From Sphyrna mokarran (taxonomy: Eukaryota), in the NCBI GenBank assembly GCA_024679065.1, contig JAGIQG010000020.1:13144001-13208000 (forward strand): a DNA stretch of 64,000 nt. The letters are read 5' to 3'. Position numbers and translations under genes: made by a program. Below, piece after piece: positions 16,475 through 49,343 of this stretch. A model generated the notes under the pieces. It made no database searches. It was not told where the DNA came from and saw nothing but the letters and a program-made list of their open reading frames with translations. Position 1 is the first letter of the stretch. The number at the start of each line of letters is the position of its first letter.

Positions 16475-17655
16475 CTGGAACACTAGTTCGCACTGCTGCC
16501 CCACTGTGTAAGGGATCTGGGATCGATGCCTGGCTTTGGGTCATTGTCTGTGTGAATTGTGCACATTCAACCCTAAACCTCACCCTAACTCTGACCCTAA
16601 CCCTAACCCGAACCCCAACTCTAATCCCAAACCTAACCTGAATCCGAACCCCAACCCTAACACCAATCCTAACTCTAACCCTATCTCTAACCCTAACCCC
16701 AACCCACATTCAACCCTAACCCAAACCGTAACCCTAACCCACATTCAACCCTAACCCTAACTCCAACCTTAACCCCAAACCTAACCCTAACCGTAATCCC
16801 AACTCTAACCCCAAACTCTAAACCTAACCCTAACCGCAACCCCAACCCTAACTCATATTCAACCCTAACCTGACTCCAACACTAACCCTAACCCGAAACA
16901 TTATCTCAACCCCAACCCACATTCAACCCTAACCCCAAACCCAACTCTGACCCTAGACCTAACCCACATTCAACCCTAACCTTTACCCTAACACCAACCC
17001 CAACCCTAATCCTAATCCACATTTAACCCTAACCCTAATCTTAACCCCAACCTCAACCCCAACCATAACCCTAACTCACATTCAATCCTAACCCTAATTC
17101 TGATGCCAACCCCAACCCTCAAACCTAACCCTAATCCTAACCTACATTCAACCCCCACCGTAACAGCAACCCCAACCCACATTCAACTTTAATTCTAACC
17201 CTAACCGTAATCGCAACCCTAATCCCACTCCAACCCCAACCCTAACCTACATTCAACCCTAACCTTAACCTCAACTCCAACCCGAACCCCCATACAAACC
17301 CCACCCCAATGCCAAACCCAACCCACATTCAATCCTAACCCACATTCAACCCTAACTCTAACCCTAAACCCAATCCTAACCCTAACCCCAACCACAAGCT
17401 CAACCCTACCTCCAACCCTAACCCACATTGAACCCTAACCCTAACCCCAACACCTACCTGACCCTAACCCACATTCAACCCTAAGCGTGCTCCAACTACC
17501 TCCCACAGTCTGAAAGACATGCTGGTTAGGTGCATTGGCCATGCTAAATTCTTCCTCGATGTATCTGAACGAATGCCGGAGTGGGGTGATCAAGGGTAAC
17601 TTCATTCCAGTGTTAATGTAAGCCTACTTGTGACACTAGTAAACTTAATAAAAAA
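16475..17655 (+). mobile_element. HE1/V-SINE-like SINE split by the telomere-like array
   Basis: 5' half (gcactgctgcc...gggtcattgtctgtgtgaattgtgcacatt) precedes the array. 3' half (gtgctcc...cctcccacagtctgaaagacatgctggttagg...gcctacttgtgacac) follows it. Confidence 0.85.
16569..17484. repeat. Degenerate interstitial telomere-like (CCCTAA)n array, about 0.9 kb
   Basis: Continuous CCCTAA/CCCCAA/CTCTAA hexamers with a recurring CACATTCAACCCTAA motif. Confidence 0.95.
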
Positions 17656-17849: not shown

Positions 17850-18194
17850 TCCAAGCCCCGCCCAGCAACAGGCCCCGCCCACGCAGTCCGCCCCCCCCCA
17901 AGCCCCGCCCACACGGCCCAGCCAGCAACAAACCACGCCCGCCCAGCCAGCCGCAGCTGAGCAACAGGCCCCGCCCACCTTCTTTATCTACATTTAGCCG
18001 CATAAATTAAAAAGATTCACATCTTCACATCCGATATCAGTACTGCAGTTACAAAACAAAACAACGGAATTTTGGAATTTCTAACAATAAAAGTATAACC
18101 GCAAAATTTACATCAAAAAAATACGATGCAACAATTCCCACATAATATGAGTATAAAATGTAGGCGAATTGGATCATTTATAAAGCATTTAGAC
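17850..18194 (+). promoter_or_regulatory. Putative type-3 (U6-like) RNA polymerase III promoter A
   Basis: Cluster of CCCGCCC GC boxes 17856-17975, octamer-like atctacat near 17986, TATAAAATGTAG at 18152 in the PSE position, and TTTATAAAGCATT at 18177 just before the N-run. Confidence 0.55.
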
Positions 18195-18328
18195 NNNNNN
18201 NNNNNNNNNNNNNNNNNNNNNNNNNNNNNNNNNNNNNNNNNNNNNNNNNNNNNNNNNNNNNNNNNNNNNNNNNNNNNNNNNNNNNNNNNNNNNNNNNNNN
18301 NNNNNNNNNNNNNNNNNNNNNNNNNNNN
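18195..18328 (+). ncRNA. 134-nt N-run; inferred hidden small Pol III RNA gene (U6 snRNA-like size), sequence not visible
   Basis: Only the flanks are visible. The Ns start 16 nt after the TATA, and the same layout recurs at 27704. Confidence 0.45.
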
Positions 18329-19775: not shown

Positions 19776-22700
19776 TTCAGATATGGCCCTATGGTTGGAT
19801 GAAGTACACTAAATTTCATTTTGTGATGGTCTGTTTGCTTCAAACTCCAGCCAGCGCACATCCTTATTTCTTAATTCTCATTCTTTTTCTGTATCAATGT
19901 TTGGAAATCCCAAAATAGAAAATCTAATGTAATGCAAGGGTAAAACCATGATCAAGCAGCTGATTTGCCCAGGACGAGGCTATTCCATTGCACTGTGGGT
20001 ATGCTGATGCCTGCGATGTCCCCAAATGCGGGATACTCAAATTCTGGGGCATGATTTGTTTAGCTTACTAGTGTGTGACAGAAAGTAAACAAATAGTTGA
20101 AGAAATCACTGCAGGATACAAAAGTCTTGTCAACATTGAGGATTCATGAGGCACTGGTCTTCACCTGGAAATTCTGCTTGCTGCAGCAACACCTATGCTA
20201 AAGCTGGAACAATACAAAGAGGTCTTGCTTAAAAAAAGATAGTCGATGTTGAAACTTTCTGTATTGCACTCATCATGGCAATTTGCAAGAACATATCCAT
20301 GGTCAAGTTTTTCATTGGTGTCACAAATAGGCTTACATTAACACTGCAATAAAGTTACTGTGAAAATCCCCTAGTTGCCACACTTTGGCACCTGTTGGAG
20401 TATACTGAGGGAGAATTTATCGTGGCCAATGCACCTAACCAGCACATACTGGGATCAACGACAACTTTATACTTTGTAGAAGAGAGATCTGATGGATTGG
20501 CAAGTGGATTCACATTGATAGAGAATGGTCATCATGGAGAATGCAGCAGTTGACGTTTACTGACAGTTCCTGCTGGCTTGCCTTAATTAATTCACACATC
20601 TCCAACTGAGTATTCATATTGCTCCATATTATAATTTCTAAAAGATTTCCCACCACCAAGGTAAAATTGGCTGGCCTGTAGTTGCTCAGTGTATCCTCAC
20701 ACCACTTACTGAAAAAGGGTGTCACATTAGCAATTTTTCCATCCTCCAGCATCACACGTTGGTCCTTTTTTAAGGTCAAACCAAATAAACAAACTCAAAT
20801 TAAATAAGGCAAAGGGGCAGCTCCCCAGAAGGAAGGGGAACAGCCCGAACAAAAACAAATTATAAAGGAAACTTAGAAATGTCAAATTAAAATGTGATTA
20901 TTAGGATCGATAATGCACCCCAGGCCATGCGGTGCCCAACAGCATCACACACTGGTATCTCAGCAGAATTGGATGAATATGGCCAGCTCCTCCTCAATTT
21001 TCACATTTACTTCCCGCAGTAACTCAAATGCAACTCAACTGGTCCTGGTAACCTCTCCACATTAAGTAGTCAGTTGTTTTAATACATTCTTTTAATTAAT
21101 ATTAGTCCATCTAATAACTCAAGCATTTCCTGTTTCACTACAACTTAGGCAACATCTTTTTTCTTGATAAAGATAGATAAAGTATTCATTAGTTTCTCAG
21201 CTACATGCTTCACTTTCACGCATAAATTCTCTATTTGGTCCCTAATCAGCTCCCCTCACCCTTCTTTACTGCAAAAGATGAGACTGAAACATTTTCAAAT
21301 ATTTTTAGACGGAAGTACTGAGTGGATGATCCATCTTGGCTGCCTCTTGATGATCACAGAAGCCAGTATTCAGCCAATCTGACTGACTCCAAGTGATATC
21401 AAGAAATGACTGAATGCTTTGGACTATGGACCCTAACAAAGTCCTAGCTGTAGTACTAAAAATTTGTCCTGTAGAGCTAGCTGCACCTCCAGCCAAGTCA
21501 TTCCAGAGGTTTCAATCCTGAAATCTGCCTCACACAGTGGAAAAATCATTCCAATATGTCTGAGTCACAAAAAGCAAGACAAATCTATTCCAACCTATTG
21601 CCACCACATCAGATCATAATAAAGGAGTAGGCTATTTGGCCTTTTGAGCCAGCTCCAACATTCAATAAGATCGTATCTGATCTTCTTACTGCATACTTTT
21701 CCATTCTATCCCTTCATTCCTCGATTTCCTTAGTATCCAAAAATCTATCGATATTTACTTTTATAATACTCAAGCCACTTTCATCCACAGCTCTCTGTAT
21801 ATTCAGGAAGAAAATTCTCCTCATCTCACTCATCAATAACTCATGTCTTACTCTTGAGTCGTTGGGTCAAAATACTAATGGCATTGTGGGCCATCCCACA
21901 GCACAGGGACTTCTGCATTTCAAGAAGGCAGCTTACCAACATCTTCTCAAGGGTAACTAGGGATGGGCAATAAATACTGGACAGCCAGCAATGCCCATGT
22001 CTGATAAATGAGTTAAAAAATTGTAACCCCTAGTTTTAGACTTGGGAAATTATAATTTGCCTTTCTCAAACTTCTCTTAATTATCAGCAGAAAATCGAAG
22101 GATCATTGGCAATGCTATCAAACGGCATTTAATCACCAATAATCTGGACATGGGTGTCCAGTTTGGATTTCACAAGGACCATTCAGAATTTAGAATAGTT
22201 TGAAATCTTAAATCAGAAATGGCAATAAGAGTTGAATGACTGCCCTTTATATCAAGGCAGCATTTGACTGTGTCATCGAGGAGACCTATTAAAACTGAAG
22301 TTGATGTGAGCTGTGGGCCTCTTCACTAGCTGAACTCATACCTAGCATTAAAAAAAATGGATGTTGAAGATCTCAGCCTCAGGACTTCACTTGAGGAGTT
22401 CCACAGTGCAGCGTCCCAGATTCAACCATCTTCAGTTGCTTTCTTAAATATCCTCACTTATTATCAGGTCAGAAGTGGGGATGTTCATTGATTAATGCAG
22501 TACTCATCTTCAGTCGTAATACTTTAGATCAAGATGACATCCAATTTTATTCATCACTTTAAACATTTGCTTCTTCTTTCACCAGTGCACAAGGCCACAA
22601 TGTGTATCATCCATGTGATGAATCGCAGCAACTCATCATGCAGTCGTCAATGGAATCAGGGACCTCTATGGCCCCCAAGAAGGGAGGCAGTTGCATGGGA

Positions 22701-24175
22701 TCACCATTATCTCCAAGTTCCTCTCCAAGGCATACATCATCCTGAATGGAAATATATTATCGCTTATCCTCGTTGTGTCAAGGTCCTAAAAGCATCTTGG
22801 GAGTACCTTCAGTAAACTGACTGCGCAATTCAAGGGGACAGGTCACCACCACCATCTCCATGGATATGAATGGTGGGTCACAAAGGTTGGCCTTGCCTGA
22901 AAAGTCCACATCTCATGAAAGCATAAGGTAGGGCAGGCACTGATTGAAGAAGTAAATTAACCAGTCAACCATAATTCCTCTGTGGCGCTGGATCACCATT
23001 CAGAGGTCCCCCCAAAGACTAACCAGTCCTTTAGATACTAAGAGGACTCCTGTACATTCCAGACTTTCCAAATAGTATTACTGCACAGTATTTTATTACA
23101 GATTATTACTGCATCACAAAAACTTAGTCTTAATTATAGGTACTGTATAAAAGTGGGCAGCTGGAAACACATTATACTTGTGTATTTGTAAAAACAGTTC
23201 CAGACTTATCAATGTCATTACTCTGTTTTAATAATACACAATTATCATCATTCTAAGATGTGCTGCAACTTATTAAGCCTAGCCATGTAAAATTAATATA
23301 CCTTAAGAACTGAATACAATGTTCAGATATATATGTCTTAATTTGGATCACAAGTAGTGCTTTGAGCATGTTCTTCATACACATAGAATCCCAACTGTTC
23401 AGAAGAAGGTCATTTGGCCCATCAAGTCTGCACTGATCACAATCCCACCCAGGCCCTGTTCCCATAACCCCATTCATTTATCCCAGCTAGTCCCCCTGTC
23501 ACTAAGGGGCAATTTAGCATGGCCAATTCACCTAACCCGCATATCTTTGAAGGGTGGGAAGAAACCACAGCACCCAGGGGAAACCTATGCAGGCACAAGA
23601 ACATGCAAACTCCACACAGACAGTGACCCAAGCTGGGAATTGAAGCCAATACTGTGAAGTAGCAGTGCTAACCATTGTGCCACCCCATGGATTGCATCCT
23701 CCCAATGCAGCAAATTATCCAAAGACAGCACATCCATTGGAAGCAGAAATACATTATGATGGCAGCTTTTCCTCCTGAATCCTAGGGCAATTCAAATTAA
23801 TAACTGACCAGCAGCAAAGCTAGAGGAAAAGCTCAGCAGCGGCCAGGACTGAAGCAGAAGGGAGATGTTCCATTTAAATATCATCCCACTGGTTGACAGA
23901 ACAAGAGTTGATGACAGTGAGATGAAATGAGTGTAGTGGAGAGAAGATATCTACCGACCGCATATATTATAAAGAACAGTATTTTGGTCTACACCAGTTT
24001 TGTGAAGTTGTACCTTATCTTACATGAGAGTCATAGAACCTTTGGGACAAGTTATGCATGGTACCTAAAATAATGTTATCTTATCCAGGGATGCTTTTGG
24101 AGGCAAACACGTATAGACCTAACATACAGCATAAAGGTGCCAAGAAAATAAACATTATTCATTGGATGTACAGTA

Positions 24176-24763
24176 TCAACAGGGGACCATTCCTCTTGTT
24201 TCTTTTTCATATATGTCTGGGACAACTCCCAGTGGTGACATCACCATTTTGATGCTTGTTTTTCCAAAGAGTCCATCTTCATACTCAATCAGCTGCTTCC
24301 AGAATCCGTTGTTGGGCCTAATTATAGGTCTGCATGCCCTCAACCAGGCATGAGCCTCGAGCAGTGACATTTGGTGATATTTCATGAGGTAAGCAAGGCA
24401 CAAAGTGGCAGATCTGCTTACTCCTGCAACACAGTGCAGCAGTGTTCATCCACGCAATTTTTCAACAAATTGGATTTTGTCCGCCACCACATCAAAGTAC
24501 TCGCTTAACTGCGCGCTGGGAGAATCTGCAACAGGAATGCTCATATACTCCAAGTCGGGAAACATAGGACTGATCACCCCTGGGGTCACACTGATTACAT
24601 ATGTGACTCCACTGGTCTGCAAGAGACTTTGGCTGTGTGAAGCAACGGCATTGCTTAAATACAAACTGCGTGTGATCAGAGCCAGGCCTGAGAGTCTTGG
24701 TGTCGGCTGGACAGAGTGAAGTGATGAAATGTTTTTCCACGTTGAGTGGGGACTCAAATCCAT
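24176..24763 (-). pseudogene. DUSP18: DUSP18-like atypical dual-specificity phosphatase, single coding exon with one in-frame TGA (nonsense allele, young pseudogene or base error)
   Basis: ORFs 24446..24763 and 24176..24403 are in one frame and join through ...[55 protein letters not shown]..., giving 195 codons plus the final stop. VADSP acid loop and HCxxGxSRS motif are intact. Diagnostic residues fit DUSP18 better than DUSP14. A polypyrimidine/AG acceptor precedes 24808 on the - strand. Confidence 0.85.
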
Positions 24764-26939
24764 TACAAACAGAACATCAGGTTTTCTTCAAATCTTTGAC
24801 ATAACGTTCTTGTCGAGAAAAGAAAAGAGTAGAAGTACTAATTAGAGGAGGGACAACGATAGATTCTGACCAGAGAACAATATTCATGTGGACAATCCTG
24901 ACAGTGTGGAAGACAACTACTTGCATTTATAGAGCAGCCTTAACATGATTAAAAAAACCCAAGATGTTTCACAAGAGGATTATCGCATTATGATCACAGG
25001 TGGCAAAAATTGGGTAAAAGCAATAGCTCTGGAAAAGAACAAGAGGGGTAGAGAGGTTTAAGGAGGGACTTTCAGTGCTTATGTCCGAGAACACTGAAGA
25101 TACAGCTGCCAATGATGGGATGAAAGAAACCAGGAATGCACAAGAGGCTAAAACAAGGAAAATTCAGTGCTCTCTGTAGGCTGTAATAGGTTGCAGACAA
25201 AGAGAGGGTCAAACTGCATGCATTTTATAAGCGGCAATTACCAAAATATTGGGAGGAAATAAAAGGGATTGATTTGATAATATTGCAGTTAATGTAGAAT
25301 CATAGAATCCTACAGTGCAGAAGGAGGCCATTTGGCCCATAAAGTCTGCACTGACCACAATCCCACCCTGGCTCTATCCCCTTAACTCCATGCATTTACC
25401 CTAGCGAGTCCCCCTGACACTAAGGGGCAATGTAGCATGATCAATCCACCTAATCTGCACATCTTTGGACTGTGGGAGGAAACCCATGCAGATACAGGGA
25501 GAATGTACAAGCTCTACACAGACAACGATCAATGCCAGGAATTGAATTTGAATTCCAAACACTGTGAGGCAGCAATGCTAACCTTATCTGGCCTAACAGA
25601 GAAAATGCAGGGCTATTCAAATTAGAAAAAAAAAATCAGTGGCATTGGAAAGTCCACCATAAATGAAAAGTGATATGTTTCATAAAATATTGTAGAAAAA
25701 TACACTGGGAAGAATAAAAGAAACTTCAAAAGTTTATCAAAAAGTGTCAAAAAGTCAGGAAATCAAATGGATATAAATACACCTAAACTTGCTAGAAGCA
25801 ACAATGGGGAAGATTCAAGAACATTAATGGGGACAAAGAAAATACTTTATGTTCTCTTGAGTATATTAAGCATTATTTGCACAATAGTGTTAAATGCAAA
25901 GAACATTCACATTCTATGTTTGATATTACAATATTTGAAATGTATGCCAGATAGTTAAAAGTATGGGGGGAAATCGCAAAGACTCTGGTGATCAAATTTC
26001 AATTTTCCAGGACTACATGACTGTTGGCAAAGGACAGCCAATGTTGCACTGTTTGTACAGGAAAGGATAATCTGAGCGCTTATAGGTTAGTTTAACTTTG
26101 TGAACAAATTATTGGAATCAATCCTAAGGGACAGTGTAACCCTTCATTTCAAAAAGCAGAGATCAGGGATGATCAAACTTACTGAATTTAAGGGCCATCT
26201 GTGATAATTTTCACATGCTCCAGAGTTGCAAGGCAGTAGCATCCTTTACACAGGCTAATTACTGCCTTGTGTCTCTCCAGCCTGGGCCTAAGTCTTTGAA
26301 AATTGGGCTATGTGGTCAAGGCTGTATGAAGGAGGACTATCATTGACTTTATTTATTTATCTCAAGATGTTGTGCCAAAAATTGAAATGAGTTGCACATT
26401 AATTTTCTCAAGTTGAGGATATTTCACTTCTGGAACTTGCTTCCAGAACTCAAATGTGAATTAGTAATTTATGTATTAGCTCTAGACCCTCATCATCCTG
26501 GAAGTCCAATATTTCCAGATATTTTTGTAATATCATGTAACAAGAAGATTGAAAATTGGACAACCATCAGTGACCACATAAACCATGAATGGTTTCACAA
26601 GGCAGGTGAAACAGAGCCCCAACTTCTGGAAGCTATCAAATTATGATGTGGAGATGCCGGCGTTGGACTTCTTACTGGAAAATTACCAAGCAGTCCTTGT
26701 AATTTATCTTTGTGAGTGAGGATGCTGGGGTCGTGAGGATGGTGATTCCTTATCAACCTTTCCAAACAACCAGCCATTTGCACTGATACAATGCCTTTAA
26801 CTCCAAGTCACATTGCAATGACAGGATAATGGAGAGTGCAGCTGGGTTAGAGGTAAATAGTCAGGGATGCTGGAAGGACAGAGAGGTTTAGAAATGTAGC
26901 CCAGAGTTTAGTTGAAGGTTAAGCGTCCAGTGATTGTCC

Positions 26940-27480
26940 AGGGCGAGGGGTGGCGGGAAGAAGAGCTGAGGCCTGGCCAGGGAAAGGCCTGGAGCCTACA
27001 CTAATCCAGAAGTGTGTACACAGCGGGCAGACAGCTCAACTCAATCATACCGGCACTGAGGGCAACACTGGCCCCTATCCCACTCGCTCCGGCCTCAAAC
27101 TCCCAAACCCCGGGGCCAGTCTCACTCATCCCAGCTACCGGCAACGACCCGCCGAGTCTGCCCAGTAACAGACCCCGCCCCATAGCAACAAGTCCCGCCC
27201 AATAGCCACTGGCCCCTCCCACCTAACCGACTGGCCCAGATCCGCCGAGACTGCCGAGCAATAGACCCCGCCCCATAGCAACAAGTCCCGCCCAATAGCC
27301 GCTGGTCCCGCCCACCTAACCAACTGGCCCAGAGACTGCCTAGCAACAGACTCCGCCCCATAGCAACAAGCCTCACCCAACCACCAACCGACCCCGCTCG
27401 CCCAGCCACGCGCAGCCGCAGTTCGCATCTGTCCAGCAATAGGCCCGCCCACCTAACCACCCGCCTGCCAAAGCCCCGCC
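26940..27480. promoter_or_regulatory. CpG-rich island with tandemly repeated GC-box, CCAAT and RFX-like motifs; candidate DUSP18-like promoter and/or upstream region of the Pol III gene
   Basis: About 2.5 copies of a roughly 85-90 bp unit (agaccccgccccatagcaacaagtcccgcccaatagcc...cccacctaacc). CpG is retained against a CpG-poor background. Lies about 2.2 kb upstream of the DUSP exon acceptor. Confidence 0.65.
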
Positions 27481-27486
27481 CATCTG

Positions 27487-27703
27487 ATCTGCATTTGCTG
27501 ACCAGAATCCACTGCGGTTACATTTACTTTACTTTCAATACTTAGCTTAAAAGGATGATAAATAATAAAAGTAAAAATTAATCTCCTTTGCTTCTGTATA
27601 TCTTGTGAATAATATATAAAAATCCTAATTTAAAAGAAAACAAAAAAAACCTCACCACCATATAAAAGTAGTTGCAATGCCCAATACTTATAAAGCATTG
27701 AGC
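27487..27703 (+). promoter_or_regulatory. Putative type-3 (U6-like) RNA polymerase III promoter B
   Basis: Octamer-like ATCTGCAT 27487, SPH/ZNF143-like CCAGAATCCACTGCG 27502-27516, PSE-like CTCACCACCATATAAAAGTAG 27651-27671, TATA TTATAAAGCATT at 27688. Spacing fits the U6 promoter layout. Confidence 0.7.
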
Positions 27704-27840
27704 NNNNNNNNNNNNNNNNNNNNNNNNNNNNNNNNNNNNNNNNNNNNNNNNNNNNNNNNNNNNNNNNNNNNNNNNNNNNNNNNNNNNNNNNNNNNNNNNN
27801 NNNNNNNNNNNNNNNNNNNNNNNNNNNNNNNNNNNNNNNN
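27704..27840 (+). ncRNA. 137-nt N-run; inferred hidden small Pol III RNA gene (U6 snRNA-like size), sequence not visible
   Basis: Ns start 15 nt after the TATA of a complete distal element-PSE-TATA arrangement. Identity is inferred from flanks only. Confidence 0.5.
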
Positions 27841-30715: not shown

Positions 30716-31312
30716 TGTGGCACAGTGGTTAGCACTGCTGCCTCACAATGCCAGGGACCCAGGCTTGATTCCTGGTTTATGGGAATCCATGTGAAATTTG
30801 CTTCTCAGCCTTTTGGCTAAGATCAAGTGTAGTATCGACATGCTGTGCTTGGTTGAAGTTATTAGATTACGTTTTAGCTTCATTTGAAGCAATTTTTAAA
30901 AGCGGCATCTTGGCCTTTTGGCTAAGATGCAAATTAGATCAAGCCTTGGAGGAGAAGCTATATCTACTCCAATCAGCTTGGATCATGTAGATCAAGCTCA
31001 AGACAGAAGGTGAGAGCCCTGTCTTGTCAGCTTGTATCAGGAATGTCTCAACTTGTGGAGACTCTGAATTGGACTTGATTGGATTGAATTGGAATAAAAA
31101 GAAAAAAAAACTATATGGAATTTGCACATTCTGCCCATGTCTCCGTAGGTTTCCTCCGGGTGCTCCGGTTTCCTCTCACAATCCAAAGATGCACAGATAA
31201 AGTGCATTGATCATGCTAATTTCTCCCTTAGTGTACCCAAACAGGCACTGGAATGGCATTTAGGTGATTTTCACAGCAACTTTATTACAGTGTGAATGCA
31301 AGCCTATTTATG
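30716..31312 (+). mobile_element. HE1/V-SINE-like SINE hosting the U2-headed insertion
   Basis: Head gtggcacagtggttagcactgctgcctcac at 30717. Body resumes at 31111 (ggaatttgcacattc...ggtttcctccgggtgctccgg). Confidence 0.85.
30800..31110 (+). mobile_element. U2 snRNA-headed retroposon with A-rich tail and target-site duplication
   Basis: 30800-30836 matches U2 nt 4-40 at 36/37. A second U2 5' segment lies at 30905-30928. A-rich tail runs to 31110. Flanking 15-mers ccatgtgaaatttgc / ctatatggaatttgc match at 12/15. Confidence 0.8.
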
Positions 31313-49177: not shown

Positions 49178-49343
49178 CGAAATCTCACAACACCAGCTTA
49201 AAGTCCAGTAAGTTTACTTGTAGCAAACACCCTAAGCTTTCAGAACACATTGCTCCTGACGAAGGAACAACGTATTGCGAAAGCTTGGGGTGTTTGCTAC
49301 AAATAAACTTGTTGGACTCTAAGCTGGCGTTGTGAGATTTCTT
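49178..49343. mobile_element. Palindromic Penelope-like element nested in an HE1-like SINE (about 48925-49482)
   Basis: Inverted arms gaaatctcacaacaccagctta / taagctggcgttgtgagatttc. Contains ctgacga-aggaacaacgtattgc-gaaagctt. Confidence 0.65.

Follow-up and report, generated by a model that had tools for sequence, protein, structure and literature searches.

U6 snRNA enters the spliceosome paired to U4. Its ACAGAGA box pairs with the 5' splice site, it also pairs with U2, and it holds the catalytic metals of the spliceosome, catalysis being carried out together with U2. For the human type-3 genes, the layout of DSE, PSE and TATA box and the factors that bind these elements have been described, and in human cells only 13 loci are reported to be occupied mainly by BRF2 and Pol III, so that activity is locus-specific (PMC3499247). 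A limited literature search returned no publication on the U6 snRNA promoters of sharks or other cartilaginous fish, a result which does not imply their absence from print.

The gene described here begins at position 27718 of the window (the whole stretch of 64,000 nucleotides that was analysed). The layout of its promoter is that of human RNU6-2, with the octamer upstream of the Z-motif, in the same orientation and at about −230 to −205 (PMC3499247). The orientation is also that of the human U6 octamers, which Fig. S9 of the same source places at −214 to −241. The gap between octamer and Z-motif is 4 nt here against 5 nt in RNU6-2 (PMC3499247, Figs S9 and S10), and the Z-motif shares 12 of 17 letters, counted by eye, with the occupied Z-motif of human U6-2 (−228 to −212; PMC3499247). 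Two differences from RNU6-2 are evident. The Z-motif here carries TGA where YWC is expected, and the octamer corresponds to the ATGCAGAT variant known from human RNU12 and not to ATGCAAAA/T. According to PMC3499247 (Fig. S9), ATGCAGAT, which is the reverse complement of the octamer at 27487, is occupied by POU2F1 at RNU12 and at two RNU1 genes. The order of octamer and Z-motif is opposite to ours in human U6-1, U6-7 and U6-8 (PMC3499247), and in the buffalo U6 promoter SPH likewise lies upstream of OCT, whereas OCT lies upstream of SPH here (PMC3958870). The proximal elements of the buffalo and bovine U6 genes are given as −31 to −24 for the TATA box and −66 to −46 for the PSE (PMC3958870, PMC1142307), compared with −30 to −24 and −67 to −47 in this study. 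U6 retrocopies and U6/LINE chimeras (PMC6789731) share their RNA sequence with the gene at 27718, and many such copies are present in the genome; unlike the retrocopies, the gene is preceded by a promoter, its tail is not fused to a repeat and its sequence has not decayed.

A U6 snRNA gene under the masked stretch

From a set of four promoter motifs, the sequence-only reading had deduced a hidden type-3 Pol III gene no longer than about 120 nt, most likely U6 or a Y RNA. All four are found where it had located them (ATCTGCAT at 27487, CCAGAATCCACTGCG at 27502, a 21-nt PSE string at 27651 and TTATAAA at 27688), as is the run of 137 Ns at 27704–27840. This run is a mask and not an assembly gap; the corresponding locus in the assembly (L003) shows no mismatch to the window at unmasked bases. 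RNA-family covariance models were run against the assembly to which the window belongs (G000, 2.77 Gb). RF00026 yielded at least 48 U6 matches, the first-listed of which (C772:13171718–13171824, tied best) corresponds to 27718–27824 of the window. It scores 118.8 bits (gathering cut-off 44) with an E-value of 5e-31 and covers positions 1–105 of the 105 in the model. With the masked stretch filled from its own assembly, the proposed Rfam scan recovered a full-length U6, and U6 alone passed when L003 was compared with all 4227 Rfam families at gathering thresholds. The search for a terminator of four or more Ts, also proposed, ended in a T5 run at the end of the gene. The predicted short transcript thus proves to be a U6 of 107 nt. 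Its start had been expected near 27719, which is right to within one base, the first base of the gene being the G at 27718. The option of a novel RNA is excluded by the full-length RF00026 match in the assembly. In an Rfam scan of the window as masked, nothing was returned at 27487–27840, and the hits elsewhere were U1 and U2 fragments and weak matches; no tRNA genes were found in the window.

The RNA matches vertebrate U6 (RF00026) over its full length, including the 5' stem-loop, the ACAGAGA box, the AGC triad and the U tail, and no difference in the RNA was found. We presume that it has the same sequence as human U6, and the names and roles of the ACAGAGA box and AGC triad are those that we assume to apply to this U6. 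The 5' stem-loop is intact and appears as a 5' hairpin in the computed fold. Folded alone, the RNA gives a z of −1.57, which is not significant; the structure of U6 is mostly intermolecular and we count this value neither for nor against the gene. We conclude, with a probability of roughly 0.93, that an intact U6 spliceosomal snRNA gene of full length occupies the locus and that Pol III likely transcribes it from a complete type-3 promoter (Table 1). It is an ordinary canonical spliceosomal U6, of a kind already known.

Table 1. Features of the two U6 loci in the window (offsets relative to +1 = 27718).
Feature	Position	Strand	Remarks
GC-rich block, 2.5-copy 93-bp tandem repeat, many CCGCCC boxes	27149–27481	.	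just upstream of octamer
Octamer variant (DSE, predicted POU2F1/Oct-1 site)	27487–27494	+	−231 to −224; 1 mismatch to consensus
SPH / ZNF143 (Staf) site (DSE)	27499–27515	+	−219 to −203; 2 mismatches to pattern; 4 nt past octamer
PSE (predicted SNAPc site)	27651–27671	+	−67 to −47; held-out matrix score 6.7 bits
TATA box	27688–27694	+	−30 to −24
U6 snRNA coding region, 107 nt	27718–27824	+	RF00026 match; N in window, read in L003
ACAGAGA box (U6 nt 41–47)	27758–27764	+	matches Rfam consensus in alignment
AGC triad	27770–27772	+	matches Rfam consensus in alignment
Pol III terminator, T5	27820–27824	+	directly after RNA; L003 sequence
Second U6, octamer variant	17986–17993	+	2 mismatches
Second U6, weak PSE	about 18141–18161	+	held-out score 1.4 bits
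Second U6, TATA	18178–18184	+	sequence
Second U6 gene	18209–18315	+	RF00026 116.6 bits, third-listed; N in window, read in L005

Promoter of the U6 gene

The upstream sequence contains the elements of a type-3 Pol III gene, namely a TATA box near −30, a PSE and a DSE with an octamer and a ZNF143-type site, and the gene ends in a T5 terminator. The SPH/ZNF143 site had been correctly noticed but its start misplaced: the 17-nt site begins at 27499, three bases ahead of the string quoted at 27502. It breaks the CCC core, although PMC3499247 lists occupied human sites that have A or T there. By analogy with the human data, POU2F1 and ZNF143 would bind the distal element and give SNAPc a more stable hold on the PSE, and the selection of Pol III would fall to the TATA box together with TBP, BRF2 and BDP1 (PMC3499247). 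Pol III would start at the G at 27718 and stop within the T5 run, and the U tail of the transcript would then be trimmed to a 2',3'-cyclic phosphate (PMC6789731). The GC-rich block just upstream of the octamer may provide extra activation or may serve another gene, e.g. the DUSP gene on the opposite strand.

Used as a DNA query against the genome, the 300-nt promoter matched only itself. Among the public runs listed for the flank of the U6 gene there is one DNA run (X1) and no RNA run. The X1 contigs, compared with 24100–27703, give a depth of about 1 over the distal promoter, the listed pieces stopping at 27247; because this run possibly stems from the source sample, it gives no independent support for the promoter. 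The biological weight of the gene is small, since U6 and its type-3 promoter are textbook knowledge and the gene is immediately evident in a family search. Promoter grammar by itself sufficed to place a hidden gene with an error of no more than one base. The −300 to −1 fragment is a candidate for a native promoter with which to express guide RNAs or shRNAs in this lineage.

Single motifs and the complete set

The octamer, at up to one mismatch, has 92 matches in the window against 99.5 ± 10 expected, and the ZNF143-type pattern, at up to two mismatches, has 15 against 11.4 ± 3.7. Both occur at chance frequency and neither is therefore meaningful alone. The PSE was scored with a matrix derived from five further type-3 promoters in the genome (two U6, Y, 7SK and U6atac), the site under test being held out. 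The best offset was exactly −67, and the score of 6.7 bits is reached at 0.45% of the positions in the window. When the five matrix sites were themselves held out, three were recovered well, the second U6 was weak (1.4 bits) and U6atac failed (−6.0 bits). The promoter-bearing Y RNA, 7SK and U6atac genes are located on other contigs (L002 on C771, L023 on C1104 and L029 on C949, respectively), and the Y RNA search of the genome gave a single match among 51 scored candidates.

TATA core, PSE, octamer and ZNF143 site occur together at the correct spacing at one of the 75 TATA cores in the window, that of the gene at 27718, at none of 51 further cores in the neighbouring 40 kb and in none of 60 block-shuffled windows; this rarity is somewhat flattered, because the thresholds were set post hoc to the values of the 27718 promoter itself and the ZNF143 pattern was drawn from a published table after the site had been seen.

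U6 copies in the genome

The copies were compared over the best 20 of the at least 48 U6 matches. Four of them carry a promoter (the gene at 27718, the second copy in the window and an inverted pair on C1215), and these are mutually identical at 102 of 102 positions of the body. Fifteen of the 16 promoterless copies are changed, at 2–16 positions (86–100 of 102 identical); the exception, L004, is also identical at 102 of 102, so that perfect identity alone is no proof of function. For the three distinct loci with a promoter, flank alignments score close to the shuffled level (z −0.2 to 2.7), except for the core promoter of the gene at 27718 when compared with L006 (z 4.4). An unchanged RNA within flanks that cannot be aligned is the pattern expected from purifying selection, and the comparison would fit such selection on both the U6 RNA and the core promoter. 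In the pair on C1215 (L006 and L007), the inverted duplication extends over about 865 bp with 2 mismatches, and its members lie 2.7 kb apart.

A real U6 gene might nevertheless be silent or weak, its identity being maintained by gene conversion with active copies and not through selection on the RNA that it produces itself. RNAs of identical sequence cannot be traced to one locus, another U6 copy lies 9.5 kb away, and the distal motifs are imperfect in that both octamer and SPH are off consensus. However, conversion of the coding region would not preserve four upstream motifs at standard spacing while the remainder of the flank diverges, and of the four promoter-bearing copies it is the one at 27718 whose promoter is fullest, whose distal element is best and whose terminator is longest. 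We therefore regard a silent, converted copy as improbable. The U6 gene at 27718 is probably active.

Far smaller still is the chance that the locus is a recent U6 retrocopy, i.e. a processed pseudogene, behind motifs that only look like a promoter. Retrocopies of U6 are numerous in this genome, 16 of the 20 fetched copies lack a promoter, one of these is perfect, and the single motifs occur at chance rates. Across the 33 fetched loci, however, a TATA core at −36 to −20 was present at seven, comprising four of the 20 U6 loci and the highest-ranking locus each for Y, 7SK and U6atac. Among the remaining 26 (U6, 7SK and U6atac) none has a TATA core in this interval and none has both distal motifs. 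The 300 nt 3' of the gene at 27718 have no repeat match among the sequences compared, whereas 11 of the 16 promoterless copies enter repeats within 25 nt. The presence of a promoter, the unique 3' flank and the lack of any change in the RNA set the locus apart from processed U6 pseudogenes. The suggestion of a Y RNA, U6atac, 7SK or a new RNA under the mask, which drew on a promoter type common to all of these and on a window copy consisting only of N, can be discarded, since the assembly shows U6 at the locus and only U6 passes on L003. Genome searches for Y RNA (RF00019), 7SK (RF00100) and U6atac (RF00619) map elsewhere, with no match at 27718.

Several promoterless copies are joined to repeats. 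The T tails of four U6 copies (L008, L009, L010 and L013) and two U6atac copies (L030 and L031) run straight into reverse-transcriptase-like frames, which we take to be CR1-like, and in three further copies (L014, L015 and L018) a SINE with a tRNA head follows. Such copies may be U6 chimeras of a non-L1 type or plain insertions into repeats.

A U6 copy joined to a possibly R2-derived element

The perfect promoterless U6 copy lies outside the window (L004:1501–3107 with L043:176–1840, on C446) and is joined to the 5' end of a dispersed element of about 1.55 kb. At the junction the T tail of U6 meets the start of the repeat, of which there are at least 40 scored copies with 95–100% identity. The first 28 nt of the repeat match 28S strings printed in PMC3774820, a source that for several species puts cleavage by the R2 ribozyme 28 nt upstream of the insertion site. 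All eight repeat copies checked can be drawn in an HDV-like arrangement, with P3 complete (3/3) in all eight, P2 (6/6) in seven and P1 (6/6) in five; since the copies are near-identical, the pairings provide no covariation evidence. A tandem duplication of the first ∼70 nt is present in many copies, and five of the eight checked are followed by TAG, which resembles the R2 target. Open frames of at least 100 aa are few in the repeat and, by eye, none resembles the R2 protein. At L004, U6 and repeat together interrupt a LINE-like reverse-transcriptase frame that resumes behind the insert.

HDV-like ribozymes of the R2 type leave a 5'-OH. RtcB joins the cyclic phosphate of U6 to RNA with a 5'-OH (PMC6789731), and ligation at the cut is therefore the natural reading. 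We tentatively suggest, at somewhat less than even odds, that U6 RNA from one of the few true genes was ligated in the manner of RtcB to the 5'-OH of an R2-type HDV-like ribozyme, that this ribozyme heads a young, non-coding, R2-derived element of 1.55 kb which would have spread outside the rDNA, and that the chimera was inserted as a unit. This model rests on one chimera and on pairings in near-identical copies. PMC5035012 reports R2 in an angel shark, and the only non-specific R2 families that it names are those of a planarian and a fluke; our literature searches found nothing on a dispersed R2-derived element of this kind in sharks. If the model is correct, U6 would here have formed a natural chimera with a partner other than L1, the junction being a predicted ribozyme cut, and a vertebrate would harbour an R2-derived family that has dispersed to sites away from 28S. 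The chimera at L004 is more interesting than the U6 gene at 27718 and merits a separate study.

The second U6 gene and the surroundings

A second U6 gene lies 9.5 kb upstream of the first on the same strand, under the second N-run of the window (18195–18328), which stands behind the same TATA context. It is identical to the first at 102 of 102 positions and ends in a T4 terminator. Its octamer variant is the U1-type variant in Fig. S9 of PMC3499247. No good ZNF143 site was found at this promoter, the best candidate having 4 mismatches to the pattern. GC-box-rich tandem repeats adjoin the distal elements of both U6 genes on the upstream side (27149–27481 and, before the second gene, an akin block at 17857–17957), and both contain recurring AGCAAC half-sites that we take to be RFX-like. 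The second U6 gene is preceded, at a distance of 0.7 kb, by a degenerate (AACCCT)n array (16569–17470; about 150 units) that resembles an interstitial telomeric repeat.

On the minus strand, the interval that separates the U6 genes holds a single-exon DUSP18/21-like frame (24763–24176). This frame contains an in-frame TGA (24448–24446) just ahead of the catalytic loop. An X1 contig, which may come from the same sample, has the same letters here, and two related DUSP frames on other contigs are without stops in the matched part. The frame with the TGA may be a pseudogene, a null allele or an error. Pfam scans that covered 145 of the 183 ORFs of at least 70 aa in the window and 70 of the 173 ORFs in 40 kb of neighbouring DNA gave, between them, only the DUSP domain and a reverse transcriptase.

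Fragments of other snRNAs are also present in the window. A decayed U1 fragment (19938–20040) and a 40-nt fragment from the 5' end of U2 (30797–30836, with a partial echo near 30914) both look like retrocopies. A hairpin at 49204–49316 gave weak microRNA-family scores, below the gathering cut-offs, and is probably an inverted repeat.
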